DNA from: Schmidtea polychroa | Lineage: Eukaryota | DNA: 64,000 bases | Direction of reading: 5' to 3' | Assembly: GCA_044892525.1 (NCBI GenBank) | Contig: CM097885.1 | Coordinates: 57,970,001 to 58,034,000, forward strand | Shown: positions 27,511 through 58,455 of the stretch, in pieces | Numbering within the stretch: position 1 is the first letter of the stretch | Layout of the letters: every line of letters begins with the position of its first letter | Made by a program: the position numbers and the translations under genes | The notes under the pieces: generated by a model | Database searches by the model: none | What the model was told of the DNA's origin: nothing | Seen by the model: only the letters and a program-made list of their open reading frames with translations

Positions 27511-27706
27511 TTATTTAAAACAATAAAATGATAATTTAAGCCTTTAGCTGCAAATAATGTATTTAATGAAAAAAATTTCGACTATAAGATAGTCCCTGTC
27601 AATCGATTGTCAGGAGATTGACAAGGACTATCTTATAGTCGAAAATTTTTTCATTAAATACATTTGCAGCAAAAGGCTTAAATTATCATTTTATTGTTTT
27701 ATATAA
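27511..27706. repeat. Near-perfect ~92-bp inverted repeat with an 11-nt loop (foldback/MITE-like hairpin)
   Basis: The arm at 27511-27604 is the reverse complement of 27616-27706 with a few substitutions and one 3-nt indel. Confidence 0.9.
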
Positions 27707-30178: not shown

Positions 30179-30867
30179 CTGATAAATTATAAGCAAAATG
30201 TTAAGTTAAATTTATGTTTATGCGTTGTCTTCTTTTTCAGCTTGATCACTTGCATTTTGTATATTGGATTTCAATTTCTAAAATATAAAATATTTTGCAT
30301 TTATGTGATGTTATTTGTGCGAGTCTCGCAATTTGCGAATTTTCTCATCAAGCCAAATTGCAAGAATATTATAGTGGTAAATGAAAACCAAATATGAGTG
30401 TATATTTCCAGGTTCATCTTGCTATTCTTTGTAAAAGTGTACAAATTTTCAGATCATCTATCAGAAAGGATATGGAAAATATCTGCCTTTGTTAATAAAT
30501 AATGAAATAGCATTATAACTATGGTATAAAGATTGCGGGATATAAATATAAAAATTTTATATCATCCAGCGATGATTTTGCATTTAAGGAAACTGTAAAG
30601 GTCTTAAAAACAATTAAATTTGCAAGGGCAGCAGTATGCTGAACATATTCTGGTTAAGGGATTTTAAAATTTTTATATGATGAACTTGAGTCCCAAAATG
30701 TATTTTTGTCAAATCATCTACTTCATGAGATTCAAATGGTTTACCTAGCCAAATATTTACAGAATCCCAATTTAAAACTCTCCTTCAATAATGAGATGTC
30801 AATGTCAGAAAAAGATTATTTATTTAACAGATTTAATTTTGCGACTGTTTGAAACAAAAACGAACGA

Positions 30868-31173
30868 TGTTACTGCTGGGGTAGTGCTTGATTGACCTTA
30901 ACTCATTTACGCACCTGTCTAGGAGATGAGTGTCCATTCATTTACGCTAAGTGTGCTTACGTCAATCCGGAGCAAGACCCCGCACAACTTGTACTCCAAC
31001 ATAGCACCTGTGAATTGCTCCACGTTGGAAATGTGCTATGCCGGCGAGACACCAGTAAGCAGGTGAGCCCCTACCTTAGGACTACTCCTTACTGAGGCCT
31101 CGACTTCCTTTTTCTGACTGCCGATGGAAGGGTTTACGTCTGATCACTCCACCATTTCCTTCCCTACCTGACA
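30868..31173 (+). repeat. GC-rich TG...CA bounded LTR-like block (D)
   Basis: Starts TGTTAC and ends CCCTACCTGACA. Shares GACTRCCGATRGAAGG with the 3' part of block C (42633). Confidence 0.35.
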
Positions 31174-31441
31174 CCGAGTTATATACAGATTGTCTAATGC
31201 TTTTCGAACTAAAGTTTGCGCTTGGGTTGTAGAAACTACTCTGAACCTTTATAATGGCTAATCAAACAAAAACTAACAATAAGAAATGACGAAAATTTCT
31301 TTATTCTACTATCATAGTACGCTATACAGTTAAAACTACAGGACTAATATAAATCAAGGGAAGACGGTTTACGAGAACATATAAGTCAGAATCGTTCAAT
31401 TTACTAAACATGATCGATGTAGTTGCATTGGATTGAGATCT

Positions 31442-32191
31442 TTACTTTTCCCATTCTGCGTCGGCTAACAGCTCCTCCAGCTCGAAGAATTCGGAGGCAT
31501 TCTCCTCCCAAGTTACACCAGCGGCGGAGATGATTCGCCCTGGGATCCCTACGGTTAAATCGATCGTTACAGGGGGATCGTTCGAAGTACTGGAGAGCTC
31601 GGCAGATAGTCCACTTTGTTTGGCGATTGCTCGTTCACGCTGACGCTTTTTACGCTCAGCTCTGGACAACTGTCGACGCTTGGGTTTTGGAACAATCAGG
31701 GTGTTTGATAGTACGACAGAGGAAGACGCGGTCGATGATAACCCTTTCTGGGCTCCAATGGGAGACACTATGGTTGACCTGGGAGAGAGATCGGCTTCCA
31801 CGCATTCCCGGCAGGGCTTCTTAGCCGAAGATGACGAATTGGAAGGAAGTTCATGATGGACGGGGAAAAGGTCGTCCGCTCCATTGATAGGTATACTCAC
31901 TATCTTTCTAGTGGCTGCCGCTTGTACGTAGACCTTGTGTAGAGCCTCGGACTGCTCTTTGATAAGACTGCGTTGGGCCCTACTCTCGCTTATTAAGGCG
32001 TCGCGACAGTGCTCGCTTCGGTACAATTTCTTTTGTACCTCCTTCATTTGTACTGGGCTGAACCATGTACCTTCCAGATGGTCGATCGCTTTCTCGTATC
32101 GACCGATCTGGGCTTGCAAATCCCTGATTATAGAATTCTTATCTGAGCATGAGAAGCAGGGTTTGAGAGACGACTTCGAGCTTGGTAACAT
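31442..32191 (-). CDS. Orphan coiled-coil/basic protein X1 (TWFSP family), ~249 aa
   Basis: Intact GC-rich ORF with ATG at 32191, 9 nt after the acceptor of a predicted 32-nt intron (32232-32201). AATAAA at 31305-31300. Homologous to ORF 42851-43321. Confidence 0.75.
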   Translation of the reverse strand: MLPSSKSSLKPCFSCSDKNSIIRDLQAQIGRYEKAIDHLEGTWFSPVQMKEVQKKLYRSEHCRDALISESRAQRSLIKEQSEALHKVYVQAAATRKIVSIPINGADDLFPVHHELPSNSSSSAKKPCRECVEADLSPRSTIVSPIGAQKGLSSTASSSVVLSNTLIVPKPKRRQLSRAERKKRQRERAIAKQSGLSAELSSTSNDPPVTIDLTVGIPGRIISAAGVTWEENASEFFELEELLADAEWEK

Positions 32192-33565
32192 TCTCAATGG
32201 CTATAATGAAAGAAACAATAAGGATAAAATACAAGATTCGCTATGTCTATTAAACCAGCCTAGTGGCCTAATCATCTATGAATTTTCCTACAAGCTATAC
32301 ATTAATTTTGATGTGGTCCTAATATATTAAGAGGAAGGGATTTATGCTAATGGGTGAAGAAAATCTCTGAGTTATTATTATTAAATTCGAATGTCATCTA
32401 CCGGTCGAGTTGTAAGCCGTGACCCCCTTTCCCTTGGTGTAATGGAGAAACAACAAAAACAAATTCGTAATTAATTAGATGCGGGGATGACCAACCTCCT
32501 TGTACACAAAATGGACAACGAAATTGAGCCGATAACTAATAATTCCTTCAAATAATATCTTTGGAAATAGACCAAACGCAGAAAACAAAATTTTATTGTT
32601 AACGCCTTCCGATTTCCCCCTTAACCAACGCATTATTCCCCCAGGACATAACTCAGAATTCCCACCTCAGCAAGCGGATGCGCAGGCAAAATTAATCTCC
32701 ACTCAATAGCTGCTGGGTCCCCGTTTAATACCAAATTGTTTGGAATATGCACCAATCACCTGGCCGTTATCTATTATTAATGTTCGGAATTATCATTCTG
32801 CAAGTTAAAATTTTAATCTACGATGAAATTAATTGTATGTCGGGAAACACCTGTAATAAGATTAATCTCATGAAAAATAGTTCGTCATGCCAGATAATGG
32901 AAGCATGAGACAGGCGGCCTGCTATCTATCCGAGCCAGCCTTGTTGTCTGTGCGTGTTTTAATTTCGGTTCTCAATACTTGTAGCTGACTGGGAAAATAC
33001 TGCATGTCGCATATGTGAGTAAGTACTAATGTGTTAGTGCGTGTGATTTATCTCGTATGTTTGCTCATTATCGGAATTATCGTTCGCAGATGATCGCAAT
33101 ACACCACTGGGTCGAATCAATTCGTGGAATCAATATGTCATCTAGGTTGCTCTCTCATCAAACGCTAATGTTGGATTTGTTCCCCGCGATGTGCAGTTAA
33201 TTGTGTTTTCTACTTGGATAACTTTATTTCGTGGACATTTCCTTCGACTTATTCGAAAAATCTGCAATTTGACAAGGTCAATCGGAGGTGTCCTTTACTG
33301 AAGGGAGTTTATCCTACTGTGAGTGTAATTTTCAGAACACTTCGAAATAATTTGGTTAAAAATAAAACAGTTTCGTAATACATTTTCTTATTAAAAAATT
33401 GTGTTCAATAAATTTCATCTATACTTCTCATGTGATTGTATAGCGTCGGCGAATGGTTTAGTACTCAGTTTCTACAGGTCAGACGGAAATTGACGTGCAT
33501 TTCAACAGAAAAGGGTTTGGTACTCAGAAGATGGAATGTCGATTGGTACACTTAGGCAATTCAGA

Positions 33566-33838
33566 CTAATCACGGATATTAGGTAAAGAATTCAAGATGT
33601 AACAGCTAAGGATGATGAGTTTCGAAAAATAAACGTTTGTAGCCACCTCAGTCATTGTTTTTAAGATCGTTCTCATTGTCAAATCCGAATGGTACTCTAT
33701 GTTATTGTCAGCTAATTCTTGCAACATTTTAATTCCCTCAGCGACGGACCCGTGAGGAAGCCCCCACTTTCCGGCCCACGTCAGCTGCGTGATTGAAGAA
33801 GCCTGTACCCACCGGCTGAGCTCCCGAAGGCTCCTCAC
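33566..33838 (-). CDS. GC-rich orphan ORF fragment, no clear ATG
   Basis: GC-rich codon-like stretch (YHGVRSLRELSRWVQA..LQELADNN) on the same strand as X1, about 1.4 kb upstream of it. Confidence 0.3.
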   Translation of the reverse strand: MRSLRELSRWVQASSITQLTWAGKWGLPHGSVAEGIKMLQELADNNIEYHSDLTMRTILKTMTEVATNVYFSKLIILSCYILNSLPNIRD

Positions 33839-35842
33839 ACCATGGTACAGGTCTCCTCAACTCCACGTTACTCGATCATAATTTTCATATAAATTCCATA
33901 AAAATCGAAATTATCATGCATAGTATCTATCATAAAAGGCTTTAAATTTCATTACTGAAAATTCTTGATTATTAAAATATGAGACCAAATGGAGAGAACA
34001 TTAAAATTTTATTAAAATTGTGATAATAAACATTATTACTATTAACTTCCATGAGAAACATTTATTCAAATTCATAATAAGAATACATCCTTACTTTATT
34101 CTATATCGATCTGTGATCTCGAAAGGCTGAGTCAAAAAAAAAATTCGGTTATTGTACTGAGTTGAAAATCCAATTGTCCCTGATAGTCGTTTATATTGTA
34201 CGTCAGTGATCGTCTGTAATGGTTGAGTGTTGATCTGTAATGGTGTTTGTTAAACAGTCAGTTTTTAAAATTATGAGCTTACATGTAATGGTGTTTGTTA
34301 AACAGTAACTATATTGAATTTGCCGTTTGCTTATATAGGAATTTTTTGTTTATGCGGACCAATCAAAATTGAGTACCGCTTTAACTTTTAAATTAATTTG
34401 TTTTTCTTATTTCTTTGGTTGTTTTTCCTTATTTTTCTTTATTTTAATATATTTTTTATTTGTTTCTTAAATTCCTCATTATTTGTTGCATTTTTCGTCA
34501 TTTTATTCCTTATCTTATTACCTTATTTTAATTTTTTTATTTTTTGTTTTAATCTTAATATTTTACGTTATTGTTTCTTTTGTCTCTTGATTTATTTATT
34601 TTAGCAATTTGTGGTCTTATTTTATTTGTTCGCGTCTTATCTGTCCTAAATTTGACGATCAAGCTTTCGACTCAGCCCAACATTACTAATTCTGAATCCA
34701 AACCTGAAATTGATGAAGAACCTTTCACCAACACCTCATTATCAACCAAATTAGAAGATAAAATAAGTCAAAAATTGTCTGAAATACAATCGAAGAATTG
34801 ATACAAAGGTATTCCAACTATATGAATCAAGTGATAAATTATCATCAAATTTATCAAAAATAGTTTGAAACAATAAAACCTACATCCACTTGTTTAAAAA
34901 AGAGGATTACGAATATAATTTGTTTTCTGAAGATACTCTTTGAAATACGATTCGTGAAAATAATATAATACGTTCTCATATATCTTGTAAATAAATTTTA
35001 AAAAATATTTTTTTATTCCATATTTTAAACAGTTATTAACTTTCAAACACTTCCTGGGAATTCAAACACCATAGCCCTAATCACATCACCTATAATGACA
35101 TTGAAGTGATAAATAATCTCAAAAACAAGTCCTCTATTAGATGTGGCATCGCATATTACAATATACTTTTTTTCATTTATTAACAAATTATTTTAAAAAA
35201 AAAACTTTTTCTATTTTATTAACTCTTCTGGCCAATTAAACAATCTAATCAAATAATATTTAAATAAAATCTTTAATAATTTTCTATTTGATCAACTATT
35301 TTCAAGTTCTCTTAATCGTAACATTCAATATTTAATATTCTACAATTATAGAAAAAAATTTTTAATGGTAGACATTGAAATTGTTTTCAACTTTGTATAA
35401 TAATATCAGTTTTATATATTTGGATAATTTTCTTTTAATTATCAAAATGCACATTTATGTATTTCTTAGGTATCCATTTTATCAAACTTTGACAAGAACA
35501 ACAGAAAATATCATAAATGTAAAATGAAATTTTTTTGCAAACTATAAAAATTTTTCCAAAATATATGAACAAGATCTGAAGTAATTAAATTTCTTAATTA
35601 AAAACTTTAAATAATAAATAAAATTGATTTTTTAAAATAATTTTTAACTCGAATATAATCTAAATTTAAAAAAATATTACTAAGAAAAACTAAACTAAGA
35701 AAACAATAAATTAAAAAATAATAAGTATTGTTTGTATAAACTGTTATTGATTTCGATAAAAAATTTAAATTATATTATATAATAATTTGAAGAAACCAAA
35801 GATTTTTTCCAAACATTTTATTGACATTCAATTAATTGAAAT

Positions 35843-36316
35843 TTATTCCAATTTGCTTTGTTGATCAAAGTCTGTGACGAGAGTTGGGACGTCATCGTCT
35901 TCATCGTCAATGTCTTCAACAGTATTTTCGTTTTCCATAGTTTGTGCAATCTTTTTGAAAAGATCTCCCTTAAGTGGGCCAAGTTGTTGCCAAACCTTTG
36001 GAAGAACTTCGGTCAATTGTTTAATTTCGGATTTTCCAGTAACTGAAAGTGTGTTGCATGGGAGTGAAACATTGACTTTTGGATTAACGAAATTAATAAC
36101 AGTTCCGTCATCTTTGAACATGTTTACTTCTTCAACTGGAACGGGGCTCATTTGCAATGATTTGAAGGTTGCCTCTAATTTCTTATCATCAGCAGCAGAA
36201 CTCTTAACAATGACCTTCTTCTTTCGTCTCATTGTACCTTTACCTCCAGTTCTAACATTTTCTGACAACTTACTAAGTTTATCTAATTTTTCAGTGTTAA
36301 GTTTGAAACCGTCCAT
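35843..36316 (-). CDS. BTF3: Nascent polypeptide-associated complex beta subunit / transcription factor BTF3
   Basis: VRTGGKGTMRRKKKV, DDKKL, EEVNMFKDDGTVINFVNPKV and an acidic DDDVPTLVTDFD tail match the NAC-beta pattern. Full length, 157 aa. Confidence 0.96.
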   Translation of the reverse strand: MDGFKLNTEKLDKLSKLSENVRTGGKGTMRRKKKVIVKSSAADDKKLEATFKSLQMSPVPVEEVNMFKDDGTVINFVNPKVNVSLPCNTLSVTGKSEIKQLTEVLPKVWQQLGPLKGDLFKKIAQTMENENTVEDIDDEDDDVPTLVTDFDQQSKLE

Positions 36317-37329
36317 AGCGAGATTCTAAAAAACTTTATTTAAACAAATTAATTTTTGTTTATCGATTTTTAAAATTAATATCAAAATTTTTTTTCGTGG
36401 TCCTTATTTATAAATTTTAAATATTTAATCGATTTTCTAAATTTTAAGATTTTATTATCATTAAATTAATTATGATTTTTCCTATTTTTTATATTGAAAT
36501 TTTTTATGAATTTTTATTCGAAATTAATAATAGGGTATTATTTTTTAAATTTTATTATGATAAATAATATTAATTCAAAATACGGTATGAGTGTATAAAA
36601 TAGTTTTTAAATAAATAATGTTTTAAAATCGTATTCTAAATCAAAAACGGGTTGTTAAAATTTTTAAAAATAAACAATTAAAGATCTATTTAATAAAATA
36701 AAGTAAACATTGATTTTTTTATCATGTTATCACAACAATAATAAAGTAAATAACGTCAATTACCGATAATAAATAATATATAAATAATATATACTATTGA
36801 GTTTAAAACAAATTTCAGTAGAATTATCATTATTGTTCACTCATTATATTTGTTACATGAGACCCAAAAATTTAAAATCTTATTTCTACAAAACAATTTG
36901 TACTACTCAATTTAATCACTGTTTAAAATATATTAAAAGAAACATTAATTGCAAAACCTTCGTTCAAATCCATTTTACAGATATTTTTTTTAATTTATAA
37001 CTTTGTCGAATTCATTTATTCTGCTAAATTTGTACACATGTTGGGTTTTATGATAATAAAAAGTCGACCGTTGGTAACTCTTACTCCACGTGTCACAAAA
37101 TCGATAAACACAAACTCCCAGCGTATATTTTTTTATAACAAATTTACAACTCTCAATAAATGATACCAATTTTTAATTAACATCAATTTCGTTTACACTG
37201 CCTGATCTAGCTTCACTTCGGAAAGTCTCTACCCTGTGCGATTTAAAATAAGTTTCACCTTTCCATTTTCTATTCCACTCTTTGATCTGAATTCCTTTGA
37301 TGTTCTCGTTCGTCCTAACCCTTTAGTTC

Positions 37330-37790
37330 CTTTTGCAATTCCTTTTGTGAAGAGTTTGTCGAATTATCCACAGATCACCGTTTTGACAATAATGAAGAAT
37401 TTTTTCTTATCAATAACCAACTCGAAAATAGATTTAAAAGAATGAAAGAAGTGACACAATTATTTTCCTGTATCTATTCAAATAACTTAATGCTAATGAA
37501 GAAATGTGATATCATAAATTTTGCGGAAGCCTTTGAGAGAAAATATAGTGATGACATCAGAAAATTTTCTGCTTTAAATGGTTATCAAAAAGCCAATGAA
37601 CTTTTATTGATATATTTGTTGTAGCATGTCACATGTGATAACAACATTGTTATTGTTTCTCACGCTACCAGTTACTGTTGCATCAGCTGAACGATCTTAT
37701 TCAAAACTGAAAATAATAAAAAAATATTTGATTAATACCATTTAGTAAAGACCTTTTAAGCGATCTTGCAATACTTTCTACTTAGCAAAA
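37330..37790 (+). mobile_element. hAT transposase C-terminal remnant
   Basis: LLFLTLPVTVASAERSYSKLKIIKKYL dimerisation motif. Confidence 0.75.
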
Positions 37791-38279
37791 GTAGCTGGAA
37801 AATGGAAATGAAAATATCATTACCGATTTTGCCAATATGAAATCAAGGTTTGTTAAGTTTTAGTTTCATTTTTGTTATTTTTTATTTTAATTGTTATTGT
37901 AATATGATATATAAAATGAATATTTAATATGGGGAACTTTTTTTGAAAATAAAAAATATCTTTTGGACGAAAAGTATTTTTTTGCTTGGGATCCAAAATT
38001 TGAAGTTCCACCACTGCCACGACTCCTTTCAATCTGAATTTATTCACAATTTAATTTTTCAATTACCATTTCTTTCAAATCTTTTTGCCAAAACAATCTT
38101 GATTTTTCGACTCATAATTGCATTTTAATTATTGTTTTGATTGCTTCATATAATCTCTATTATAGCTCTTTAATTAGTCTGCACCATATTCTTATAAATC
38201 TGTGTTATTAAAATTGTGTTGGAATGATTTAAAATTAATGTAGAGATAAAATAAAAACTAATCAAGTATTTAAAAAAAT

Positions 38280-38903
38280 ATTTGTTAATACATGGAGAAG
38301 CAAATTCTTTAAATGATGTTGATGTTTCAGCCCATGTGAAATGAAGAAACCATAAAAAATTGTTTCTAAAAGGCTGCGATTATTCCAGGTCTTCACGGAT
38401 CTTATACTGAAGAAAACTTGTCATCAGATTCCGTTCTTGAGACACACTAGAATGAGCTTGACCAAATAATGGTTGAAGAGGATATGATTCAAACAGAAGA
38501 AGTCATTGATGATGATGAAATAGATGTTATAGATGTTATTGATGTTGTACTTGGTGCTGAAGATGGTCAGGTCAATGACAGTTACAACATAAGTCCAAGC
38601 AATTTATTCCATGCAATTGAAATCGTCATCAAAGCATGTTCTTCTTTAAACAGCTCTACTCAAAAAATAACCAATGATACCGTAAAAAATTTAAAAGAGG
38701 TCAAAGATGATTTACAGAAATTCATTCTAAAGAAAACTATTAAAAACTTTATATGATTTTTTTAATAAATAATTGTCTTTTTCTTAATAATTTCATCATT
38801 GATCTGACTATCATATAGATTTTAAATTCCTTCATTATCCGAATTAATTCACAATCCGAAAGAAAATCGATTTCTAATTTTGCGGATTAATGAGGGTTGA
38901 CTG
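38280..38903 (+). mobile_element. Tigger/pogo 3' remnant
   Basis: Acidic C-terminal ORF ending KKTIKNFI. TIR CGGATTAATGAGGGTTGACTG is followed by TA. Confidence 0.7.
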
Positions 38904-39334
38904 TATTTCTAAATCGGTTACCCGCACTGGCAGTTATTTGATTGAGGTTTAATTAGAAAATTAACGCCAAATATTTTCGCTTTTAGATTAATTATTACAG
39001 TTTTCGGAAGCGCGGTTTGGAAGATGATTGAATTATTTGGATCATTAATTAATACTCAAATCCTGAGGTTTAATCAATAATTAGTTCATCTACCAAATAT
39101 TATAAAAGTAGAAGCAATAAAAAACCGGAGGGAGACAAATATCAAGATGCAAGAATATTAAAGAGAAACTGTAGAGACGCCAGTGAAATTATAGAAGCCT
39201 GAGGCTAGAAGTCACTGTTTTGCCCAATGCATCAACCGTTCGAAATGACATCTGAGAAGTTTACTCTTGGTAAACTTTCTCAATTTATTTACGAATATGG
39301 ATAGTAATTGATTTTGTGATTTCTTATATGAACT

Positions 39335-40620
39335 TGTTGAGGTCTGTAAATTAAAATTAAAAATTTAAATAAAATTTAGGATAATAATTCAAATGGAAAG
39401 TAAGCGAGGAAAAAAGGCAAATAAAAGCGGGATCGTGCACAGAATCAATAGTAAAGGAAAGTGTGACGGAAACAGTAATAGAAAATGCAAAAAGCAATTA
39501 CGAAAGGCGAGAATCCGGAAATCCGAGAAAAATCAATAAATGGAAAAATCATCGAAATCGAATGGGAAAAACGGGACAGGTATAGATTAGCTAATGGTCA
39601 ACAAGATGATGGTTAGGGATTTATCAGAAAAGGGTTAGGAAGGGTCGAAAAATATTCAAACGTATGAAAACAGAAAACGTTAATTAATTAATTAATTGGC
39701 TAATGGAAAACCCGAGCTAATGGGAAACCCGAGCCAATGGAGAACCCGAGAGATAAAGGAAACCCGAGCTGGGTAAACAAGAAGAAAGGCAAACAAAAGG
39801 AAGATTTGGGCCCATTAGCTTGACACAATGATTAATGGGAAAAGAGTAAGGAGAAGATAGCGCGCGTAGGAAGACCGGTAGGGCCATTAATTATCTGGAT
39901 TCGTTGGACCATTATGGGTGACAGCCGAAGCAAACACGTAGGAGAAAATGTCAAACGAAAGATTGGCTCGGCAATAACCATTTGTCATCCTGATTTCGAG
40001 GAGTATATAAGCAAAGGGAAAATCAGAGAAAATCGGCATTCTGCCTCAGCTAGGGTTCGAAGAATTAGACTGTAGGAAAAGTTGGTAGACGAATTAGGAA
40101 AGTAGGGAAAAGAAGAAAAAGAATTAAGATTACGGAAAGGGGAAAAGGAATCAAACCAAACAGAAACCGAGGAAAACGTGAATCGAGAGAATCTAAAGGA
40201 CTAAAAGGTGAATATTATTTGTTTGCAAAGCATCAACGCCGAGCGGAGAATCGTATAAAACTTTGATTGGTAATTGTAGCGTGATAATAAATTGTGAACC
40301 TGTTGTTTCAATATACGTTGGGTCGTTCATTGTTTTGATTTAAAGAACACTAGGAGTCAGAGAGAACCGACTTGAAATAATCCAAAACCCAACAAACTTT
40401 ACTATCTGTAGTTTTTTATGATATTTAATCAAAGGAACGTGAGGATTCATGGAACCGAATCCTACCGGAACATTTATTATTAAAACACAATAGTGTTTTT
40501 CTGGGAGGAGGTATGGGCAAAATGAAGCGAGCAAACGAAAAAATGAATACGAATATAATAATTTTAAATCGATTGGGGAACATAGACCAACTAACTAATT
40601 AATTAATTGATAAGAATAAT
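39335..40620 (+). mobile_element. LTR-like sequence (family copy A; right end approximate)
   Basis: Starts TGTTGAGGTC, has four AATGG/AAACCCGAG units after AATTAATTAA and a TATA GTATATAAG. AGAACACTAGGAGTCAGAGAGAAC matches copy B. Confidence 0.55.
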
Positions 40621-40899
40621 TCAATTAAATAAAAAACAAAATTTCAGAGCTTGACAGGTATCATGGAAGCCTATCAAGTTTAGTTCTAGATATAACTAAA
40701 TGTATTGGTCCATGTTTTCCTTGACTTGTGTCATAATAGTATTTAGCACAGAATAATTTTTTAAAAATTTACTTTTAGTACTAAACCTCAAAAATATTGT
40801 AAGCGGATTTAGCCCAAATGTCCTAGTCCAAGAAGTGCTTACCAACAAGACTAGGTAAAAATGACTGAATGTCACTGGCTTGAGAGCACCTGGTATATC

Positions 40900-41320
40900 C
40901 CAAAGCAGATAAAGGCATAAAATCTAAAGCTGGAGGATCAGCAAAGGAAAATAGAAAATTGGGAGGTCAATCTATATCTACTCCAGTTGGCAAATAGAAA
41001 ACTTACCGAACAACTAAATAAACAATCCTTTGAAGAGTACTTGGACAATTCGATGCATAAGGTTGAAGGACAATATACCAGTTACACCATTCGTACTGAA
41101 TGCAAGGATATTCTTCTTGGCTTGGACATTGATAAATTATCTCTAGAAGAGCATCACATTGAAGTCCTCAGTGTTCATGAACACTCCTAACGCGTGGATT
41201 AGATTCTAGAGAAGCAGCCAAAGTATTTATAAGCATATGTGCAACTAATCTAAATTGTAGGGTTACAACAGTTAATAAACGACTTTGGAACCGAGTTTGT
41301 GCACTCAAACAAAATATTCT
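40900..41320 (+). mobile_element. Highly decayed retroelement integrase remnant
   Basis: EAAKVFIS and NDFGTEFV resemble the integrase core DNGxEF region. Confidence 0.4.
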
Positions 41321-41980
41321 AATCTTTTAGTTTTATGATGATAGTATTTAATCAGATTTAATCAGATGTTATACACTAATATTTAAATAAAACTAGAACC
41401 TTTTAAGTGCATTAATCATGTATGTTTTGACCAATAACTGTGAATAGAGACATAATAGAAAAGAGTGACTGTGTAGGATATAAAAGGGAATCACCCTAGT
41501 TATGATCAGTTAGTGTCTTTTACCAATACATTGGACACAGATACCTTTAAAACTTTGCAGGATCCAGAGGTTCTCATCGTTATTTCGAACTTCTGCAAGG
41601 CCATACACAACTAACATTACTTGTGATGGGTGTGTTTAGTTGCATCGTATTTTGAATTGACTATAACTACGAAATGAATTCTCATCCGTAACCAAAGAGG
41701 CAGAAGTAAGTTAACGGATATATTTGGAGGACTGGGCAGCAGGAAATCCTAAATATAAAATACCTTGATGTATGAAGACCAGGAGGTATATACTAAGTAC
41801 TTCCAACAGTAATTAAAAAGCAGACTTATAGTATTACGCAACCCTAACAATAATCGGAAGAAATTACTCTCGCTCTCTCAAGACTGATGGCTCACATTGA
41901 TTAATTTGTTTTCATGGGTGGTTATATGATAGAGCCGAAAGCGTAAACTTAGTTATTAAGCAACTGAACAGTTAAAATAC

Positions 41981-42705
41981 TGTTAGGGTTCAACAAGAGA
42001 GGTACAAATTGAGGTGAAAAATCAATAAAAACACCAAATTCACAATAATAATTTAAAGTACAAAAATATTAATTGAAAATTAAAAAAGTTTAAAATGAAT
42101 ATTTTTCGGGGAAAACTGATATGGGCGGATGCCAAACAATGAGACGAGTACAAATATGCTAAAATAAAGTTAATAGGAGGTCCCTAGAATGAAATAATTA
42201 CAAAAAACTAAAATTAATTAAAAATTAATTATCTAACAGAAAACCCGAGCTAATGGGAAACCCAATCTAATGGAGAACCCGATAAGATAAAGCCCGGAAA
42301 AAAAGGATACAAAGCAATTTGATTAAGGGATAATAAAATTACGAGATGGGTATAAAAGCCACCGGAAAGTAAACAGAATTGCCAGTAGGTTGAAGAAAGA
42401 AAAGAGATTGTTTAGTGAAAGGAAGCAAAGGAGAGTTTAACTTTGTGATAACTGGTGGGTTACTGGTGGTTGAATGATTGAGTGCTGTTACCAGCGTAAC
42501 CCAAAATACAACATTGTTTTTCCGCTTGGTACCCGTTGAGTGATCAACGTTGGTACTGTACCAAGGGTTGAGTACTCGCAAAAAGTGAGCGCATCAAAGC
42601 ACTATAGTTGTCGAGTACTCCGTGGGTTCACGGACTACCGATAGAAGGTGTGTGTCCGATTTCTCAGGTCCCTTTATCAAAATTGTTTTCCCAACCTTAT
42701 GCACA
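41981..42705 (+). mobile_element. LTR-like sequence (family copy C)
   Basis: Starts TGTTAGGGTTC, carries the same AAACCCGAGCTAATGGGAAACCC repeats and a TATA GTATAAAAG. Candidate end GCACA at 42705. Confidence 0.55.
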
Positions 42706-42850
42706 AACTCTCATTTCCCAGGCAATCATAAACTGTACTAGTCATTATTTTATCACTACAAAACGTGCAGTATTTTAACAAGGAACATATTATTTGAAGA
42801 CTACCACAATACATAAAAATACTACAAAACACCTAAAACCGAATATAAGT

Positions 42851-43357
42851 TCAAACAGGCTTATTGGTAGGACTGGCCAATTCCGTCGCAGCTGCTAGTG
42901 ACGAATTTGCTTGTCGCTCGTATTCGGCCAGTCTAGCTTTCTTCAATTTTTCCCGAATATTTCGGCCTAACCGCTTTCTTTTGGGTTTCTCTTTCGCGGC
43001 CGGGGGGTATATTGCTGCTAGTTCCACGGTCAACGGCCGGATTTGGCTTATGGCGGCTCCGTGAACTACTTGTTCATTGCGTTCGGTTTTTAACGCGCGG
43101 AGCTGGAGTTTCAGTGCCCGGATCTCCATCTGATCCTGCGCAGCTTGAGTCTGCAGTTGAAGGACCTGCGCCACCTTCTTTTTCATATCCTCGGGACTAA
43201 ACCAGGTGCTTTCTAGTTCCCGGCACCGTCCCTTGAGCTTGTCTACTCGTATGCGGAGCTCCTCGGACTGTTTTTGAGCTTCTGCCCTATCTCTTCGCAG
43301 ATTTTCCAATAGTTTGAACACTAGATAAATTCAACGATTATATTCTTGCAGCATACT
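42851..43357 (-). CDS. Orphan coiled-coil/basic protein X2 (TWFSP family), 156 aa
   Basis: Intact GC-rich ORF whose start codon would be formed as A|TG across a predicted 36-nt GTATGC...TAG intron (43356-43321). Aligns without gaps to X1. Confidence 0.75.
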
Positions 43358-43530
43358 ATTCATTCAATTATAAAATAAAATCAATATTATAAATAAACAT
43401 AGTTTCGGATGTTAAGCACGCAATACACAAGATGATTTATTAAAAGGACTGAAATAATTATCACTAAAATCAAAGTTTAATAAAGTCACAACTGAATGAT
43501 AATTTGCAAAAACAAAATTTTGACGATGAG

Positions 43531-43896
43531 TCAGTTCAGTCGCTTGCGAGGCCTTCCCCTCTTCCGCGGGGTTGCCTCGGCCTCTTCTAGGTCCTCCACG
43601 GTTTTTCCCTCTTTTTCTGCTTGGATTTGTAGCTCGATCTTCTTGAGTCGCATCTGAGCTGCTTCTACCTCGATGGCCGCTCGGTCGCGGGCCTCTTGCA
43701 AAAAATCGTTTGTGGGCTCTGTTTTTACCCACGCCGGAGCGTCCGGCTCCGGCCCACTCCTGATTACTGGGCCAAAGTTGTCGAGGTCCAAACCCCGATT
43801 CCAATCATGGATACGGTGCCATATGTACCGTGTACGGAGTCTGGTAAGCATCTGTCGGTCGGCTTCTTCGTGGCTATCGCTGTCAGAGTAGGACAT
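43531..43896 (-). CDS. Small AT-hook protein, 121 aa
   Basis: C-terminal TPRKRGRPRKR AT-hook after a coiled-coil-like stretch. ATG lies 2 nt after the acceptor of a predicted 42-nt intron (43940-43899). AATAAA at 43441-43436. Confidence 0.75.
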   Translation of the reverse strand: MSYSDSDSHEEADRQMLTRLRTRYIWHRIHDWNRGLDLDNFGPVIRSGPEPDAPAWVKTEPTNDFLQEARDRAAIEVEAAQMRLKKIELQIQAEKEGKTVEDLEEAEATPRKRGRPRKRLN

Positions 43897-44658
43897 TTCT
43901 ACAAAATAATAATCAAGCCCCTCTATGCTGATTGAGATACGACGTCAACCACAAGATTTTGTTGACCCTTTTTCCCTTTTAAAAAAATATTTTATTTTAA
44001 GACTAACATCTATAAGCTTAGGAGCAGTGGAATAAGATTTCCTACTTTATCAAAACAAACACAAAAAAAAATTTCGTCAAAATTCGTTTGTTTAAATCAA
44101 TCATTTCCATTCAAAATTTTGTTTACCACTGAGTGGTAATTTTAATTACTATTTATAAATTTTAATTTATATGTTAATAAAATGTGAATTTTTTTTTGGT
44201 CGTCATTTTTAGGCCACTAAATTCGGGCACGCTGGGGCGACAGGTACTAGCAACGAACTAAGCTCTTCGTCTGCTTACCTTTCCTTCGGTTGTGCTCGTT
44301 ATGAGTGGTTTGCTCTACATGCAAGTAATTTATTTGATTTTTTTTTACTTCCTTATTTTTTAGGCGATAACATTAGGAACCTCGATCGAGTAAGGGGAAT
44401 ATATTAGCTTGGAGTAGTCTTCCCATAGTTCTTCCCAGGGAATGACATTTCATGCCCAATATTTGATTTGGACCCGCAATTTGTCCCTCGCAGAAAATTG
44501 GAAATTTTTCGGGAATATTTGTATTCTGTATGTAGGTAAATCTCTGCGAATTATGGCTTATTTATTCAACTGCATGGTTCGCCGGAGTCATCCTCACCAT
44601 CTCCTGGAAACTCTTGATTGTCATAGCCCCGTCTTGAATTTTTCCTTAAGGTTTCTCT

Positions 44659-44680
44659 GGGGGGGGGTGTTGCTAAATAT
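44659..44680 (+). promoter_or_regulatory. Polypurine tract (G9) followed by TGTTGC, a probable 3' LTR start at 44668
   Basis: Same G-run+TG geometry as the unambiguous PPT/LTR junction at 13999/14000. Confidence 0.55.
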
Positions 44681-44809
44681 AGATTTTCAGTTAGGAACGT
44701 TTTTATTGGGCAAAAGAATTGACTCCAAATCTAGATATGGGGAAAAAATCAATAATTGATTTTTTGCTTTCCTAGTAAGTAATACTAATTATGATCATAA
44801 CCGTAAAAA

Positions 44810-44985
44810 TGGTGATAACGAGGATAACAAATGATCGTAGTGGTAATAATAATAATAGTAATAGTCATAATAACAATAATGATAATAATAATAATGAGAA
44901 CAATAAGGATAGCAATAAGAACAATAATAGCAATAATAATAGTAATAATGATAATGGCAACAATAATAATAATAGTGATAATATA
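44810..44985 (+). repeat. Degenerate (AAT)n microsatellite
   Basis: Runs of aat/aac/gat triplets. Confidence 0.9.
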
Positions 44986-45229
44986 ACTTTATATTTTACC
45001 ATTCGTATTTTGGCTTTCACAATTTAGGGATTCATATTTTATGAGTTCGAAGGTTACATTTTGCACTTTACAGGTTTTCGTCTACGATTTTCAATTTTTT
45101 TATCTTACAGTTTATAAATTCATACTTTAGAAGTTCTCATCATACACTTTATAATTTATAAATTGTTTATTTAACATTTTACCATTTTATATTTTTTACT
45201 TCCTAATTTTCTATTTTCAGATTTATAGT

Positions 45230-45640
45230 TTCATGGTCTACCATTTAGAAATTTGGATTCTTGATTTATGATTATATGGTTTAAATTTTTTGTTCAATAT
45301 TTTACGACGTTATGTTTTCGACTTAATGGTTATGATTTATACAATTATAGTCTACTATTTAGAAATTTAGATTTTTACTTTATGATTATATAGTTTTTGC
45401 TGACAATTTATATTCAACATTTTTCGATCTTACATTTCAGACTTCATCGTTATGATTTGCCCTTTTATGATCTACAGTTTAGATTTTTGATCCATAGTTG
45501 TATAGTTTATAACTTATAATACTATATTCGGTATTTTAGACTTTATGATTATACTTTACACTTTTAAAGTCTACAATTTAGAAATTTAGGTTTTTAATTT
45601 ATAGTTGGTAGTTTTATATTCAGTAATTTACGGTTTTAGG
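45230..45640 (+). repeat. Degenerate ~110-115 bp tandem repeat
   Basis: TCTACnATTTAGAAATTT(A/G)G recurs at about 45237, 45352, (45470) and 45570. Confidence 0.6.
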
Positions 45641-46009
45641 TCTATAATTTATCAATATAATTATCTCCAAGCTATTATAGTTATTTATAAAAGTTATAAT
45701 CAATTATTTATACCTTTAGGAATATGTTACAGTGAGAATTTAGATTCGGGATTCTTTTAAATTTATAACTTTTTCCTTTACGTTGGATTCATTAAGTCGG
45801 TGATTTATTCACAGGTCTATCCAAATTTAAGCTCTACTTAGACATAGGCCGAAGAATTTTACCATTTCTATTATTCCAATTACCATGGGCTCCTATTACC
45901 AAACCTAATTCGGCATATGTCCAAGTGTACCAAAATATTATTATTGATCAACCAACTACATTAATGTGCTTGCAGAATTGTGTAAGTTTAGGTATGAGCT
46001 CTACTCAAT

Positions 46010-46402
46010 TTAGGACCTTAGTGTGGAGTCGTTGTTTATGATTTTGAATGTGGATTTTTCATGTGTATTAAACGAAAGTCGGGAAGAATATTGCTTCCAT
46101 GGCCCCACTGTGACCACTTCTACAAACCTTAGTGTTGTGTGCTGAGTCAACCATTTACGGTTGACCTTGAATAAATACAAAGAGTCAGGCGGAGGGTTTC
46201 CTCGACCTAACTCCATGGCAGGACCATGAAGTAGTTCGACCTCCGGCTGACCCGAACAAAAAGAAATCATATAATAAATATCACTATAATAATGATAATG
46301 CGTGTCTGCATGTCCTGTTAATAACGATTTTAATAAATTGGATGCAGGACTGAACAACGACGCAGGAATACCAGTACGCCGTTGATCACTCATACATCGC
46401 AA
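46010..46402 (-). CDS. Orphan ORF, partly GC-rich, possibly spliced
   Basis: 130-codon open frame with coding-like segments either side of an AT-rich, intron-like stretch. Same strand as X2 and the AT-hook ORF. Confidence 0.35.
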   Translation of the reverse strand: MRCMSDQRRTGIPASLFSPASNLLKSLLTGHADTHYHYYSDIYYMISFCSGQPEVELLHGPAMELGRGNPPPDSLYLFKVNRKWLTQHTTLRFVEVVTVGPWKQYSSRLSFNTHEKSTFKIINNDSTLRS

Positions 46403-47703
46403 AAATTTTTAAGCAAAAATAAATTTAAAATACCATCTATATAATTAAACAATTAATATACAAATAAAGATCAATGCTTACTATCGATTTTGGAAATTTC
46501 GTCACAAAAATTTGGCATAAAAAGTGATTGATTGTGACTGAAACGTGTCAGTATATATACCTATTTAGTACACGTGTATGTATTGATGCATTAAAACAAA
46601 CTCGAATTCTTTTTATTCCAGAATTTTCTATTTTACGATTTTGCTATTTTTAATGGCAATTTTTGTGCCATAATTTTTGTTTTTATTTTTATATTTTTAT
46701 TTTTTAATTATTTTTCATTAATTTTACGTCCATGATGGATTTGGAACGGTTCCAGAACATTCTATTTTACTTTTAATTTAATTCTTATTTTAACTGATGT
46801 TTTTATGAATTCTTTTTGAGATTTTTTTTTTTTTTTTTTTTTTTTTATTTTTAATACTAATTTATTGATTTTCCTTAACTTTTGTTGTTCTAGATAACTT
46901 TTGTGATGGTCATCGCCATTTTTATAGAATGTTCTGGGTTTTTCTGGAATGTTTTACTGTTTTTATCGTCTTTTAAGTTATTCGAGTCTGTTTTTTGTAA
47001 CTCTGTGTTTATTTGGTTATTTTTGAGTTAGATTTTTGCATCACTTCTTGCTTTTGTATAATTTTGTTTAATTTCTTTGTTTATGTTTTTGTTGCTTTCT
47101 CCTTTAGTTAATATTGTTTATTTGATGTAATTTTAATATTTAGCTAAACGTCTTGCTTTTGCATGTTGTGTACCTGCACCTTTCAGTCACAATTCAAGTT
47201 TGGGTCTAGAAGTCAGTTCTAGCCCAACATAACTAATCTTTTCGAATCCAGCATACCAAAAATGGACATCTCCCGTTGAACAATTAACCCCTGCACAAGG
47301 TTCAATTTCGAATTGAAAAGTGTGCAGAGCAAAAAAGTGGTTTAAAGTGTGATTATTTCATTAAAGAGTGTAATCGAAAAAGTGTAATTGTTATAATCTT
47401 GAATAAATATTATTGTGTTGGATTGTTCAATTTGATTAGCAAAAGGACACCAAGGAGTCAGATAGTGACACTGACTTGTACAAAATACCCAACAATACAA
47501 AAATGAAGGACACAATGACAGCCAGTCAACCAAATGTAAATATAAATAACTAAAATAAAATGTAAACCTTATGTAGGAGTTATGAAATCCGTTTAAATTG
47601 GTACATTATTTCGATTGCTTTCTCTGTAACTCATTATTCTACACTGTGATAGATATTTTAGATGAATATTCAAGAAATAAATTTCGTTAAAAATGTTTGT
47701 TAA

Positions 47704-56199: not shown

Positions 56200-58455
56200 T
56201 TTTTTGCTATTACACAATTCTTATTACAGTAATAATATTACTAATTAATAACAACTTCATTTTCAATCGGTAAGTTTTAACATTATTTTAATTTCAAACT
56301 TAAATTAATTTCTAAATGAATTTAGGATTAAATATGGATCAGTGGTTGAAAGCTGGTACAATAAACGTACACTAGAAAGTCAAGTCACATCAAAAACACA
56401 AGTACAAATACAAAACACAGAAAATGCGCCGTCTTCAGTTCTGCAGATAGCTAAAAAGAGGAAATACTGCGATGATTATATGAAATATGGATTTTCATAT
56501 ACAAGAGGTGACGACAGCCCTAAATCCAAATGTGTAGTATGTGGTGAAGTGCTATCAAATGGCAGTATGAAACCCTCCTTGCTTTTACGTCATCTCCAAA
56601 CAAAATATGCCAATTATAAAAACAAGGAATATGATTTTTTTAAACGCTTAGCATCTCAAAATTTGAAGATGTCAGATTTGACATCGTACATCCTGCCAGC
56701 TAATAAAAATAACGAAAATGCGACTGAAGTTAGTTACCGCATTAGTTACCGTATTGCTACGTGTGGTAAAAATCATACAATTGCAGAGAATCTAATTCAA
56801 CCATGCATAGAAGACTGTTCGGTGTATGCTTGGAGAAGAACATGTGCAAAAAATAAAAAATATTCCTCTTTCAAACAATACAATATCTCGAAGAATTTTG
56901 GATATGTCTGATAATGTTGAGGCAACAGTGAAATAGTAAGGTTTTCGCTATACAAGTTGATGAAAGCACGGATGTTGCTAATTTTGCTATTTTGCTTGTT
57001 ATTGCGAGGTATTTAAAAGACAATGAAGCCGAAGAAAACCTTTTACTTTGTCATGCTCTGTCAGAACACACAACAGGTGAGGATATTTTCAAAGCTATCG
57101 ATTAGTATTTCCAAAAAAGGCGTAAATTGGTCTAATTGCTGCGGGCTCTGTACCGATGGTGGCAAGTCTATGTCAGGTATTTATTCCGGTCTGCGCGGTC
57201 GACTCTAGAAGATAGCTGCCAAAATAAGTTGGAGGCACTGTTGCATCCACAGGCAAAGTTTGGCATCTAAGCATTTTCCAGTGCAATTGAAGCTTGTTCT
57301 TGACGAAGCTACGAAAGTGGTTAATTTTATAAAGTCAAGTTCAACCAACTCGAGATTTTTTAAAGCATTTTGTGAAAATTTTGATAGTGTTCATTCTACT
57401 TTGCTATATCATACAGAAGTAAGGTGGCTATCTCGAGGCAAGGTCCTTACCCGATTGTTCGAGCTTAGACATGAAGTACAGGCTTTCTTCGAAGAACATC
57501 CTTTTCAACTTGCTTCCAAGTTTCACGACTGTAATTGGCTTCAGACGCTTGCTTATTTATCAGACATTTTCCTTCGTACAAACAATCTAAATTTTATTTA
57601 CTTACAGATAGATCTAAATTTAGCACTTCAAAATAACTCCATATCGATATTCAATGTCTCGGATGAAATTGAATCAATGATTAAAAAAATTAATTTTTGG
57701 AGAACATGTATTGAAAACGGTCAACCGGAGGTATTTGAAACTTTGCACGATTTCCTATCAAAGAATAAACTTTGCCTCTCCAGAGAATTGAGAAACAACC
57801 TATTTGAACACTTAAAAGAGCTAAAATCAAATTTCGAGAAGTATTTTCATAAACCTGATGTAGGAAACAATTGGATTTCAAATCCTTTCAATGACGAATA
57901 CTTTCGAATAGCTAAATTATCAATCACTGAAAAAAATAACTTAATTGAACTTTCAAATGACTCTACTTTGAAAGTCGAATTTAAAGGAAAATGTCTTATT
58001 AAATTTTGGTCACATATCAGCACCGAATATGAATTGCTTTCAACCAAAGCGCTGAACGTTTTGTTACCATTTACAGGTACAGTACAGCTCCAGATTTAAG
58101 ATTATACCTTGCATCAATCGAACCTGACATCACAAGACTATGCATCTCAAAGCAAGCTCAAGGATCTCACTAAATGTAATAAGTTAAGTTAAAAGTAATG
58201 AAAAATTTTAATGTAAAAAATATAATAGTTTATATTCATGTCGTTTTTTATTAAAATATATGTAACTATAATAAATGTTTTACTTTTCATCAATACACAT
58301 TCTGAGCATACTCCTTGACACATTATTGCTATTTATTTAGTGTTAACAAATGCGCGAGTATTAATATTTTAATTTTTTTTCTAATATAAGGGGTACAATT
58401 TAGGATAATGAACTTCCAAGGGGTACTCAAACCAAAATAAGGTTGAGAAGCGCTG
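56200..58455 (+). mobile_element. hAT (Buster/ZBED8/SCAND3-like) transposon, frameshifted
   Basis: KYGF..KCVVCGEVLSNGSMKPSLLLRHL, CTDGGKSM and YHTEVRWLSRGKVLTRLFELR. Right TIR AGGTTGAGAAGCGCTG. Confidence 0.93.

Follow-up and report, generated by a model that had tools for sequence, protein, structure and literature searches.

We found that both TWFSP open reading frames (ORFs) in the window, the whole stretch of 64,000 nucleotides of Schmidtea polychroa DNA that was analysed, are transposable element (TE) genes inside solo LTRs of Burro-type gypsy elements and not host genes (Table 1). The reading that we favour, tentatively and at somewhat less than an even chance, is that TWFSP is an accessory gene borne on the LTRs of these giant elements, likely made from a short spliced LTR transcript, with a product that is most likely a Rev/CERV-like regulator of element RNA. 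As far as its sequence goes, each LTR looks like a small gene, with a candidate TATA/initiator, donor, covarying intron RNA, acceptor and ORF, to which subtype Ia adds a poly(A) signal.

Table 1. Positions in the window of the two solo LTRs and of their observed and predicted features
Feature	Coordinates	Strand	Details
Solo LTR A, 3809 bp, subtype Ia	30874..34682	-	TG..CA ends
Predicted promoter, LTR A	34313..34363	-	ATTGG (reverse CCAAT) 34359-34363; TATA 34331-34337; initiator-like TCA ~34313-34320
Predicted first intron, LTR A, 48 nt	34235..34282	-	GTAAG..TACAG; 3' end is a tandem copy of the exon 1 end
Predicted second intron, LTR A	32201..34094	-	Donor 34094; acceptor ends 32201
Conserved structured RNA element in predicted second intron, LTR A	33735..33870	-	Covariation; candidate RRE-like or packaging signal
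TWFSP gene, subtype Ia, 249 aa	31442..32191	-	Open frame, family alignment, predicted model
Predicted poly(A) signal AATAAA, LTR A	31300..31305	-	139 nt past TWFSP stop
Solo LTR B, 4777 bp, subtype II	42453..47229	-	TG..CA ends
Predicted promoter and leader exon, LTR B	46482..46560	-	TATA 46551-46560; initiator TCAGT ~46537-46541; leader ends with A at 46482 before GTAAG
Conserved RNA hairpin cluster in predicted intron, LTR B	46080..46395	-	16 copies
Second LTR gene, subtype II only, 121 aa	43531..43896	-	Own acceptor (AG ends 43899) and AATAAA (43436-43441)
TWFSP exon, subtype II, 155 codons after first TG	42851..43320	-	AG/TG acceptor 38 codons before the T of TWFSP

The TWFSP genes lie in solo LTRs of Burro-type elements

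Both LTRs are flanked by perfect 4-bp target duplications, which read on the plus strand TTAC for LTR A (30870-30873 and 34683-34686) and TAAC for LTR B (42449-42452 and 47230-47233). Along its full length, LTR A shares 97.9% identity with each LTR of a 29.6-kb element (G000:C3:115.10-115.13 Mb), LTR B shares 99.2% with each LTR of a 35-kb element (G000:C3:110.81-110.85 Mb), and where the window aligns to full elements the match is confined to the LTR, with no internal region adjoining. The six full elements span 29.6-35.1 kb, with LTRs of 3.8-4.8 kb that are 99.7-100% identical within each pair, and the TWFSP ORF is present in both LTRs in sense to gag-pol, an orientation on which we rejected TWFSP as an antisense ORF. 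TWFSP matches in the same genome mostly form same-strand pairs, spaced ~30 kb apart in type II and 26 kb in type I, and 1058 PBS-like sites were counted. The element polyprotein of 4791 aa carries zf-CCHC, MATH, Monjiviricetes_fusion (E 3e-69), PR, RT, RNase H, integrase and ankyrin, in this order, and accessory ORFs include RING, BIR-RING and TRAF. The cargo of the type II element comprises MATH/TRAF, RING, BIR and ankyrin, all present, and that of the type Ia element RING, MATH and ankyrin, with no BIR match in the 8 of its ORF pieces that were scanned. By length, LTR size, polyprotein order and cargo the elements are Burro-type, the comparison being with the published description and not with reference sequences.

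The original prediction had described two intact orphan paralogs in GC-rich islands, set apart from the broken TE ORFs around them. Its descriptive part was accurate: both frames (31442-32191 and 42851-43321, minus strand) are open, their GC contents of 50.7% and 51.2% exceed the 31.6% of the whole window, the gypsy-type ORFs found elsewhere in it are broken up, the identities given for the ungapped 56-residue block from TWFSP are exact, with M8 and K9 in addition, and KPKRxxLxRxxRxK is found in both proteins. The two proteins match each other weakly, above chance (BLASTP E 3e-4; a Smith-Waterman score reached by 2 of 2000 shuffles), and their homology is secured by a 32-member family alignment. 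The islands are not duplicated loci; they are parts of two solo LTRs from two related element families, and the supposed orphan paralogs are themselves TE genes with thousands of copies in Burro-type LTRs. A further correction concerns 42851-43321, which falls short of a complete ORF: what reads as a 'GTG' start is the G of an acceptor-like AG followed by TG, and the predicted exon starts at 43320.

Copy number and selection in the TWFSP family

The expectation of further copies in the source genome was borne out, with 3386 occurrences of the TWFSP motif against 1 in the control, divided among three subtypes (Ia, Ib and II) whose order follows the RT region. RT identity is 96% between Ia and Ib and 82% between I and II, and TWFSP identity is 29-35% and 19-22%, respectively. 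The median dN/dS was 0.106 in Ia, 0.088 in Ib and 0.099 in II, with no pair at or above 1 among 228, 3 and 18 usable pairs, values that describe intact copies only and non-independent pairs, of which 196/435, 7/10 and 26/45 were saturated. At ~0.1 between subfamilies, and not near 1, these ratios support the purifying selection that had been proposed, as a property of the replicating lineages and not demonstrably of the two window insertions. That the window copies are intact is due mainly to their youth: they differ from their nearest family copies by 0 to 2 non-synonymous changes, and in an unselected sample no more than 12 of 30 copies were intact. Within subtype Ia, pN/pS was 0.10-0.18 in conserved blocks versus 0.46-0.48 in linkers, with 0.12 in the acidic tail. 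The basic helix of the family is conserved as well (pN/pS 0.17-0.21), and no region exceeded 0.64, so that no positive selection was seen at the level measured.

Predicted expression cassettes of the two LTRs

The promoter motifs of LTR A are conserved, as judged by eye, across 14 aligned type I LTRs, and GTAA(G/A) occupies the first-intron donor column in 14/14 of them, preceded at position -1 by T in the window copy and by G in the others. A donor-like GTAAG/GTAAA stands at the second intron in the 11 aligned Ia LTRs, and most of the Ia copies listed have a pyrimidine-rich stretch and AG ahead of the ATG. AATAAA lies 110-143 nt past the stop in 26 of 30 intact Ia copies; a conserved poly(A) signal was found in none of 5 Ib copies and is missing after the TWFSP stop of the type II copy in the window. 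We discarded an AATAAA near LTR position 590 as poly(A) site, which was initially present in 4/4 LTRs and was lost in a wider alignment.

The type II promoter motif of LTR B occurs 1104 times in the genome and 0 times in the control. At 27 of the 28 loci in which a donor was found (30 examined), or 20 of 21 distinct sequences, the leader ends in A, the one remaining copy ending in G. The subtype II TWFSP exon has no ATG of its own at its start, and AG/TG occurs at the exact acceptor place in 17/20 loci picked as type II candidates. Joining the final A of the leader to this acceptor would create an AUG, against which it counts that subtype Ia, with no need of such a start, commonly shares the leader-final A (8/11 by eye). 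We rejected as the real start an ATG further upstream, within the type II leader; the window copy has it in frame, but its frame is not kept (phase 1 without a stop in 8/21 distinct leaders). A strong donor at 44279 was dropped as splice partner, being present in only 2/8 LTRs.

The original prediction missed the second conserved ORF of LTR B, whose product has two helices followed by a C-terminal PRKRGRPRK that we take to be AT-hook-like, with no Pfam match to this motif. Its median dN/dS is 0.133 (11 copies), and it is absent from type I elements (4/4). We rejected it as exon 1 of the type II protein, given its own stop and AATAAA (10/11) and no strong phase-1 donor by eye. Across the elements, a YAG stands at most 11 nt from the first ATG in 10 of 15 accessory ORFs, versus 31-32% of control ATGs. 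The LTR anatomy suggests how ~ten ORFs could be expressed from an element of 30-35 kb, with one leader and many acceptors.

In four contig sets compared with 30800-44450, a stretch that ends short of the LTR B leader, no predicted splice was found among the 15 joints listed of 89. For two contigs of a diverged relative the match ends at 43322 and 43329, right at the type II acceptor, and we set these contigs aside as splicing evidence, their unmatched parts of 484 and 795 nt being too long for the predicted leader.

Covarying RNA structures in the predicted introns

In LTR A, the conserved RNA element comprises 50 pairs, of which 97.8% of cells are paired across 13 Ia copies compared with 37-46% in slid controls; 11 pairs have changes on both sides, 0 of 500 shuffles scored as high on covariation, and the folding z is -2.75. 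For the LTR B hairpins, 97.6% of the cells of 19 chosen pairs are paired, with 7 pairs changed on both sides (0/500 shuffles), and the first hairpin has a z of -5.3 on the element strand versus -0.7 on the other. The covarying stems are G-U-rich and sit inside a predicted intron in both LTR types, and Rfam gave no match within 30800-47300.

The TWFSP protein is a predicted helical hairpin with a basic helix

The Ia protein consists of a CxxC, a helix (13-40), the TWFSP turn, a second helix (46-98), a variable linker, a basic helix (168-198) and a conserved acidic-hydrophobic tail, whose motif is L-D/E-E-L-L in Ia and I-D-E-M-L/I in Ib and which is lacking in type II. AlphaFold models the monomer as a helical hairpin (pTM 0.36; 0.33 for the second ORF), in agreement with the coiled-coil and basic build first described. 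Most members from this genome have 10-12 K+R in 20 residues, helical in the model, and relatives from other genomes have up to 12 Arg in 20 residues. The basic patch, the one pointer to its location, would place the protein in the nucleus. In a simple pattern scan for the class 1-3 consensus, the type I tail showed no conserved match to a canonical nuclear export signal; the sole shared matches fall in the type II coiled coil, where heptads yield them by default.

The statement that the protein belongs to no named family still holds. Pfam returned weak coiled-coil matches only, and a word-indexed search of 5.8 billion proteins, at near lengths only, gave no match for any of three queries (Ia protein, family alignment, second ORF). 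A full HMMER scan found 16 relatives, with no functional name among the 10 looked up, and one of these public relatives scores on Pfam REV (PF00424) with E 0.0013 and 19.1 bits against a cut-off of 22; REV was not among the 25 listed of 33 Pfam families for the 32 own members, and this single match below the cut-off may be compositional. ESM Atlas gave nothing at 0.9 or above, Foldseek against PDB and viral models had 0 matches at E 0.001, and VIA-align retrieved generic helical hairpins only (ESCRT-III/PspA/HR1, Z up to 10.6), with scores in the range that the tool gives any helical hairpin; beyond such a hairpin, neither a family nor a fold was matched. In public gene models, the TWFSP domain is fused to at least 12 unrelated host families, one protein each, in clusters that are single-member in 9/9 looked up, and such chimeras fit gene predictors having absorbed an LTR exon, which would explain how it came to be glued to unrelated host genes.

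Possible roles of the TWFSP protein

In the Rev/CERV-like reading, transcription would start 370-690 nt into the LTR and end within it, and a short leader would be spliced to one of many acceptors, one ORF behind each, spread over LTR and internal region. The earliest mRNA would be the fully spliced one for TWFSP, and its protein would oligomerise through the helical hairpin, enter the nucleus and bind RNA by the K/R helix. The target would be the structured intron element, retained only in unspliced or partly spliced RNA, and the 30-kb gag-env-pol RNA would thereby escape splicing and reach the cytoplasm, and any solo LTR retaining the cassette could provide the protein in trans. Among the observations that speak against this role, the RNA stems follow closely on the main donor, the usual place of packaging signals in retroviruses, and need not be a response element, and the strongly conserved acidic tail of type I looks more like an activation motif.

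The tail leads to the main rival, in which TWFSP is a transactivator of the element's own promoter (Tat/Tas/Tax-like), a possible though doubtful role, with a dimerising hairpin, a basic helix for DNA or nascent RNA and an acidic tail for coactivators, the AT-hook-like partner binding DNA in subtype II. In Ia the acidic-hydrophobic tail is as conserved as the core, type II, without the tail, is alone in having the second ORF, and TWFSP would be the first gene behind the promoter. Yet type II keeps the core and basic helix without any tail, no DNA-binding fold was found, and TAR sits at the 5' end of its RNA, unlike the structured element here, which is several hundred nt past the predicted start.

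A host-directed factor, acting in anti-silencing or in manipulation of chromatin, the piRNA pathway or cell survival like other cargo (BIR-RING, TRAF/MATH, ankyrin), seems quite unlikely. TWFSP diverges far faster than RT between Ia and Ib, as conflict predicts, Burro is described as a piRNA target (PMC8532177), and protection of stem cells has been reported for its BIR-RING cargo (as cited in PMC13465017), while the proteins show neither the positive selection looked for above nor likeness to a host protein. We consider improbable a structural or packaging helper, nucleocapsid-like or particle-associated, with the intron stems as packaging signal for the TWFSP protein or Gag: particles are plausible with an encoded fusion glycoprotein, the stems would be lost from every spliced RNA, as befits a packaging signal, and the hairpin resembles the generic ones named above, but Gag already has CCHC knuckles and the fold scores are typical for any helical hairpin. 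Next to no weight is left for an orphan family of host genes whose two diverged paralogs selection has preserved, for which the intact homologous frames and the domain's fusion to host genes in models of other genomes would speak, refuted as it is at both window loci by their place in solo LTRs with target duplications among thousands of copies, and by fusions scattered over unrelated families in single-member clusters.

Returning to the Rev/CERV-like regulator, the LTR anatomy points to a factor and an RNA element that could control export of the unspliced genome. We regard as rather unlikely the stronger proposal that a complete Rev/RRE-like switch sits inside the LTR, made up of promoter, spliced leader, structured response element, poly(A) site and a regulator gene whose start codon is splice-made in one lineage, and that thousands of solo LTRs are dispersed trans-acting regulator genes for the ~thousand elements bearing an internal region. 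If true, solo LTRs would not be dead scars and would act on elements including the family reported to support planarian stem cells.

Comparison with known systems

Planarians harbour giant gypsy-like LTR retrotransposons named Burro/GYPSM1 (Jurka 2007; Grohme et al. 2018; via PMC6431247), and the elements here share with the Burro description in PMC6431247 a size of 30-35 kb, multi-kb LTRs, gag knuckles, MATH, env between gag and pol, PR-RT-RH-IN and ankyrin, together with the accessory RING, BIR-RING and TRAF ORFs; unlike what we observe, that description names no LTR ORF, splicing cassette or LTR RNA structure. Outside the figure of PMC6431247, Grohme 2018, Lee 2026 and the Repbase entry, which may annotate these LTR ORFs, no publication describing an ORF within the LTRs of Burro was among those listed by a full-text literature search. 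A contribution of Burro1 to regeneration in planarians has been reported (as cited in PMC13465017), and a small regulator gene with a unique predicted splice junction would therefore be a practical knock-down handle.

HTLV Rex, MMTV Rem and HERV-K Rec are Rev-type systems with shared features. TWFSP resembles HIV Rev/RRE, as described in PMC10309623, in being a small protein from a predicted spliced RNA, with a predicted basic helix, a putative helical oligomerisation module and a structured RNA in a predicted intron. Unlike in Rev, no canonical export signal was found by the pattern scan, there is no homology beyond Arg-richness, and unlike in Rev/RRE, gene and RNA element both lie inside the LTR. 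In Cer1, a gypsy element of C. elegans, export of the unspliced genomic RNA requires CERV, a novel nuclear protein that is made from a spliced mRNA, as TWFSP is predicted to be, and that is predicted to multimerise (PMC10309623). By its description there, CERV is large, with three domains including a G-protein-like domain and a Cys loop, whereas TWFSP is a predicted helical hairpin with a basic helix in 150-250 aa.

TWFSP can also be set beside accessory ORFs that lie in or overlap an LTR. A start codon made by splicing may have a counterpart in Drosophila gypsy env, which our literature search did not confirm. MMTV sag, HIV nef and foamy virus bel/bet are such accessory ORFs, hence present twice per provirus; they belong to U3, ahead of the start site, and are expressed from the 3' LTR. 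For TWFSP, the conserved promoter motifs stand 2-3 kb upstream of the ORF, which speaks against U3 and would put the gene in R or U5, so that a solo LTR would be a whole transcription unit. Solo LTRs are commonly treated as non-coding leftovers; those described here carry, behind a predicted promoter of their own, one or two protein genes under strong purifying selection, so they may still make protein.

TWFSP genes reside in the LTRs of Burro-type elements

We found that TWFSP is a conserved, unclassified accessory gene of the LTRs of Burro-type elements, the giant gypsy-type retrotransposons of planarians, and not the host orphan family of the original prediction, since both ORFs sit in solo LTRs of such elements, which exist in many copies. 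The two frames are indeed open, and realignment reproduced the gapless 56-residue block with the identities listed for it. Taken alone, the two window proteins match each other weakly (E 3e-4, with the Smith-Waterman score reached in 2 of 2000 shuffles), and the frame of the short protein (subtype II) has no ATG at its start, opening at AG then TG.

When searching the source genome, we obtained 150 of 150 scored matches for each protein, drawn from 5871 and 6153 candidates; among the scored matches, those of the short protein are mostly same-strand pairs ~30 kb apart, and many of those of the long protein (subtype Ia) are paired ~26 kb apart. Furthermore, a genome-wide count gave 3386 occurrences of the TWFSP codon pattern versus one for the reversed control. 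Six match pairs were retrieved in place, and each is an element of 29.6-35.1 kb with LTRs 99.7-100% identical, in which both LTRs carry the TWFSP ORF, sense to the polyprotein. All six share the PBS-like 18-mer TGGGGGCTCAGCCGGGAT (1058 genome copies), which we take to resemble the 3' end of tRNA-Pro. Directly ahead of the 3' LTR these elements lack a polypurine tract, in place of which stands a conserved GGG(C/T)CCC(C/G)GAGTG-like stretch. The internal regions hold a 4791-aa frame with gag knuckles, MATH, fusion glycoprotein, PR-RT-RH-IN and ankyrin repeats, and further ORFs with RING, BIR-RING and TRAF, the same layout as the Burro architecture in planarians (PMC6431247), which makes a planarian the probable host.

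LTR A and LTR B stand in the window as LTRs only, within perfect target duplications, and both are therefore solo LTRs. Their neighbourhood holds host genes between which they lie, a BTF3/NAC gene and one which, from its translation, is malate dehydrogenase-like. The AAAACCCGAGCTAATGGG-like repeats are another abundant family, and LTR B is inserted within them or next to them. Elsewhere in the genome, an LTR series and a promoter series at regular spacing are tandem elements with common LTRs.

Features of the window and of source-genome (G000) loci; window coordinates unless a contig or locus is named
Feature	Position	Strand	Remarks
Long TWFSP ORF	31442-32191	-	in LTR A
Short TWFSP ORF	42851-43321	-	in LTR B
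LTR A	30874-34682	-	TG..CA ends, perfect 4-bp target duplication
LTR B	42453-47229	-	TG..CA ends, perfect 4-bp target duplication
Second conserved LTR gene, subtype II	43531-43896	-	121 aa; dN/dS 0.133
BTF3/NAC gene	35843-36316	-	intronless; Pfam E 1e-15
Poly(A)-like tail	35803		closes one contig of run X6, near BTF3/NAC gene
Tandem copy of exon 1 end	34236-34331		closes predicted 48-nt first intron, Ia and Ib
GGGAGCTCAGCCGG, similar to TGGGGGCTCAGCCGGGAT	~33811-33824		in loop of LTR A RNA stem
Strongest LTR A folding window	~30973-31112		LTR positions ~3571-3710, near 3' end; z -5.4 (rough shuffle)
PBS-like TGGGGGCTCAGCCGGGAT	e.g. L031 (fetched element locus):8459-8476		7-8 nt past 5' LTR; six G000 elements
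Palindrome, MITE-like	27511-27706		near-perfect, 195 bp, 96% arms
AAAACCCGAGCTAATGGG-like short repeats	39000-40400, 41900-42450, 3990-4060		contig depth very high
Gypsy-type pol ORFs, fragmented, and hAT-like transposase pieces	201-2606, 9260-13874, 56480-58099, 61743-62186		
Three LTRs	G000:C4:44132870, 44162669, 44192468		spaced 29.8 kb
Four promoter copies	G000:C1:39428588-39475985		spaced 15.8 kb

Selection and relatives of the TWFSP family

Among the copies examined, 45 are intact by a length rule, as are 12 of 30 in an unselected sample (the first 30 pattern matches). They fall into three subtypes, Ia (~249 aa), Ib (~254 aa) and II (143-158 aa). In a tree of 32 own sequences, without near-duplicates and truncated copies, and 13 of the 16 public proteins, Ia forms a single clade (100/99), Ib does not come out as a clade, and type II joins one public protein. 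Upon comparing subfamilies, we observed median dN/dS values of 0.106 in Ia (228 of 435 pairs usable), 0.088 in Ib (3/10) and 0.099 in II (18/45), the unused pairs being mostly saturated at synonymous sites, and no usable pair reached 1. The linkers escape the constraint, which sits in the hairpin, in the basic helix and, for Ia, in the tail. Selection, which had been read from intact frames, is thus borne out between subfamilies, with medians of ~0.1; the window copies differ by 0-2 non-synonymous changes from their closest relatives and are therefore intact through youth.

When 1.84 billion proteins were scanned with a profile, 16 relatives were returned, and the family is thus present in other genomes. 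Most are long models with the TWFSP domain attached to unrelated host families (at least 12 among P0004-P0018), probably mis-predicted chimeric genes that absorbed an LTR exon from LTRs in introns. The AlphaFold model, of low global confidence, has a helix at 13-40, the TWFSP turn, a helix at 46-98 and a separate basic helix, and fold searches with it found nothing beyond generic helical hairpins.

Predicted promoter, splice and poly(A) signals

Reading an alignment of 14 type I LTRs by eye, we observe four signals in succession ~315-400 nt into the LTR, namely ATTGG and TATA boxes, an initiator-like TCA and then a donor, with a second donor near 590 in Ia. Type II LTRs carry TATA, TCAGT and a donor at ~670-750, and their promoter motif occurs 1104 times in the genome. 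The type I ORF starts 0-11 nt after an acceptor-like AG in most copies, and the acceptor-then-ATG layout is found in 10 of 15 accessory ORFs versus ~31% of control ATGs. In type II, the exon starts at AG/TG exactly 38 codons ahead of TWFSP at 17 of 20 candidate loci, and the final leader base is A in 20 of 21 distinct leaders versus 36% A in the leader body, so the predicted splicing would create an AUG; the final A is, however, also frequent in Ia leaders (8/11), which weakens this argument. Past the stop, 26 of 30 Ia copies carry AATAAA at a distance of 110-143 nt and none of five Ib copies does, and 6 of 10 type II copies have AATAAA or ATTAAA at 31-63 nt, the window copy having neither. 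Additionally, the second type II gene ends in an invariant AT-hook-like PRKRGRPRK; the four type I elements lack it, and no homolog of its protein was found.

RNA structure within the predicted intron

Stems with compensatory changes are kept inside the predicted intron in both LTR types. In Ia such changes affect 11 of 50 pairs, and in type II 7 of the 19 pairs chosen; in each, covariation is higher than in any of the 500 shuffles or any slid control. Such counts may be inflated by the relatedness of the copies. Many invariant G-U pairs and the strand bias of the fold (z -5.3 on the element strand versus -0.7 on the other) point to an RNA structure of the element strand, and the Rfam search gave no match. 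Within the strongest LTR A folding window lies the sole block, of 39 nt at 90%, that LTR A has in common with type Ib LTRs.

Possible function and comparison with known elements

The element would splice one leader onto many acceptors, yet would have to export a 30-kb unspliced RNA, and by analogy we tentatively suggest that TWFSP acts in this export like Rev, the HIV RNA exporter, or CERV of the gypsy element Cer1. The expected gene position, the basic helix, the hairpin, likely an oligomerising module, and the structured intron element, which would be lost from TWFSP's own mRNA, match such a role; counting against it, neither a canonical export signal nor real Rev homology was found in the TWFSP proteins, and the intron stems may be a packaging signal. 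A transactivator, which the acidic tail would fit, seems unlikely, and a host-directed factor, in keeping with the fast divergence of TWFSP relative to RT, is quite improbable.

The element type itself is already known. The Burro account (PMC6431247) does not mention any gene that lies within the LTR past its promoter, nor do the accessible portions of PMC8532177, PMC11410931, PMC13465017, PMC5408684 and PMC10309623, and Grohme 2018, Jurka 2007 and Lee 2026 could already show the ORFs. With the TWFSP gene, a detailed, testable expression design is predicted for Burro-type LTRs, and for the Rev/CERV-like role the comparison is with Cer1, in which, according to PMC10309623, CERV is made from a spliced mRNA and meets the need for export of unspliced RNA.
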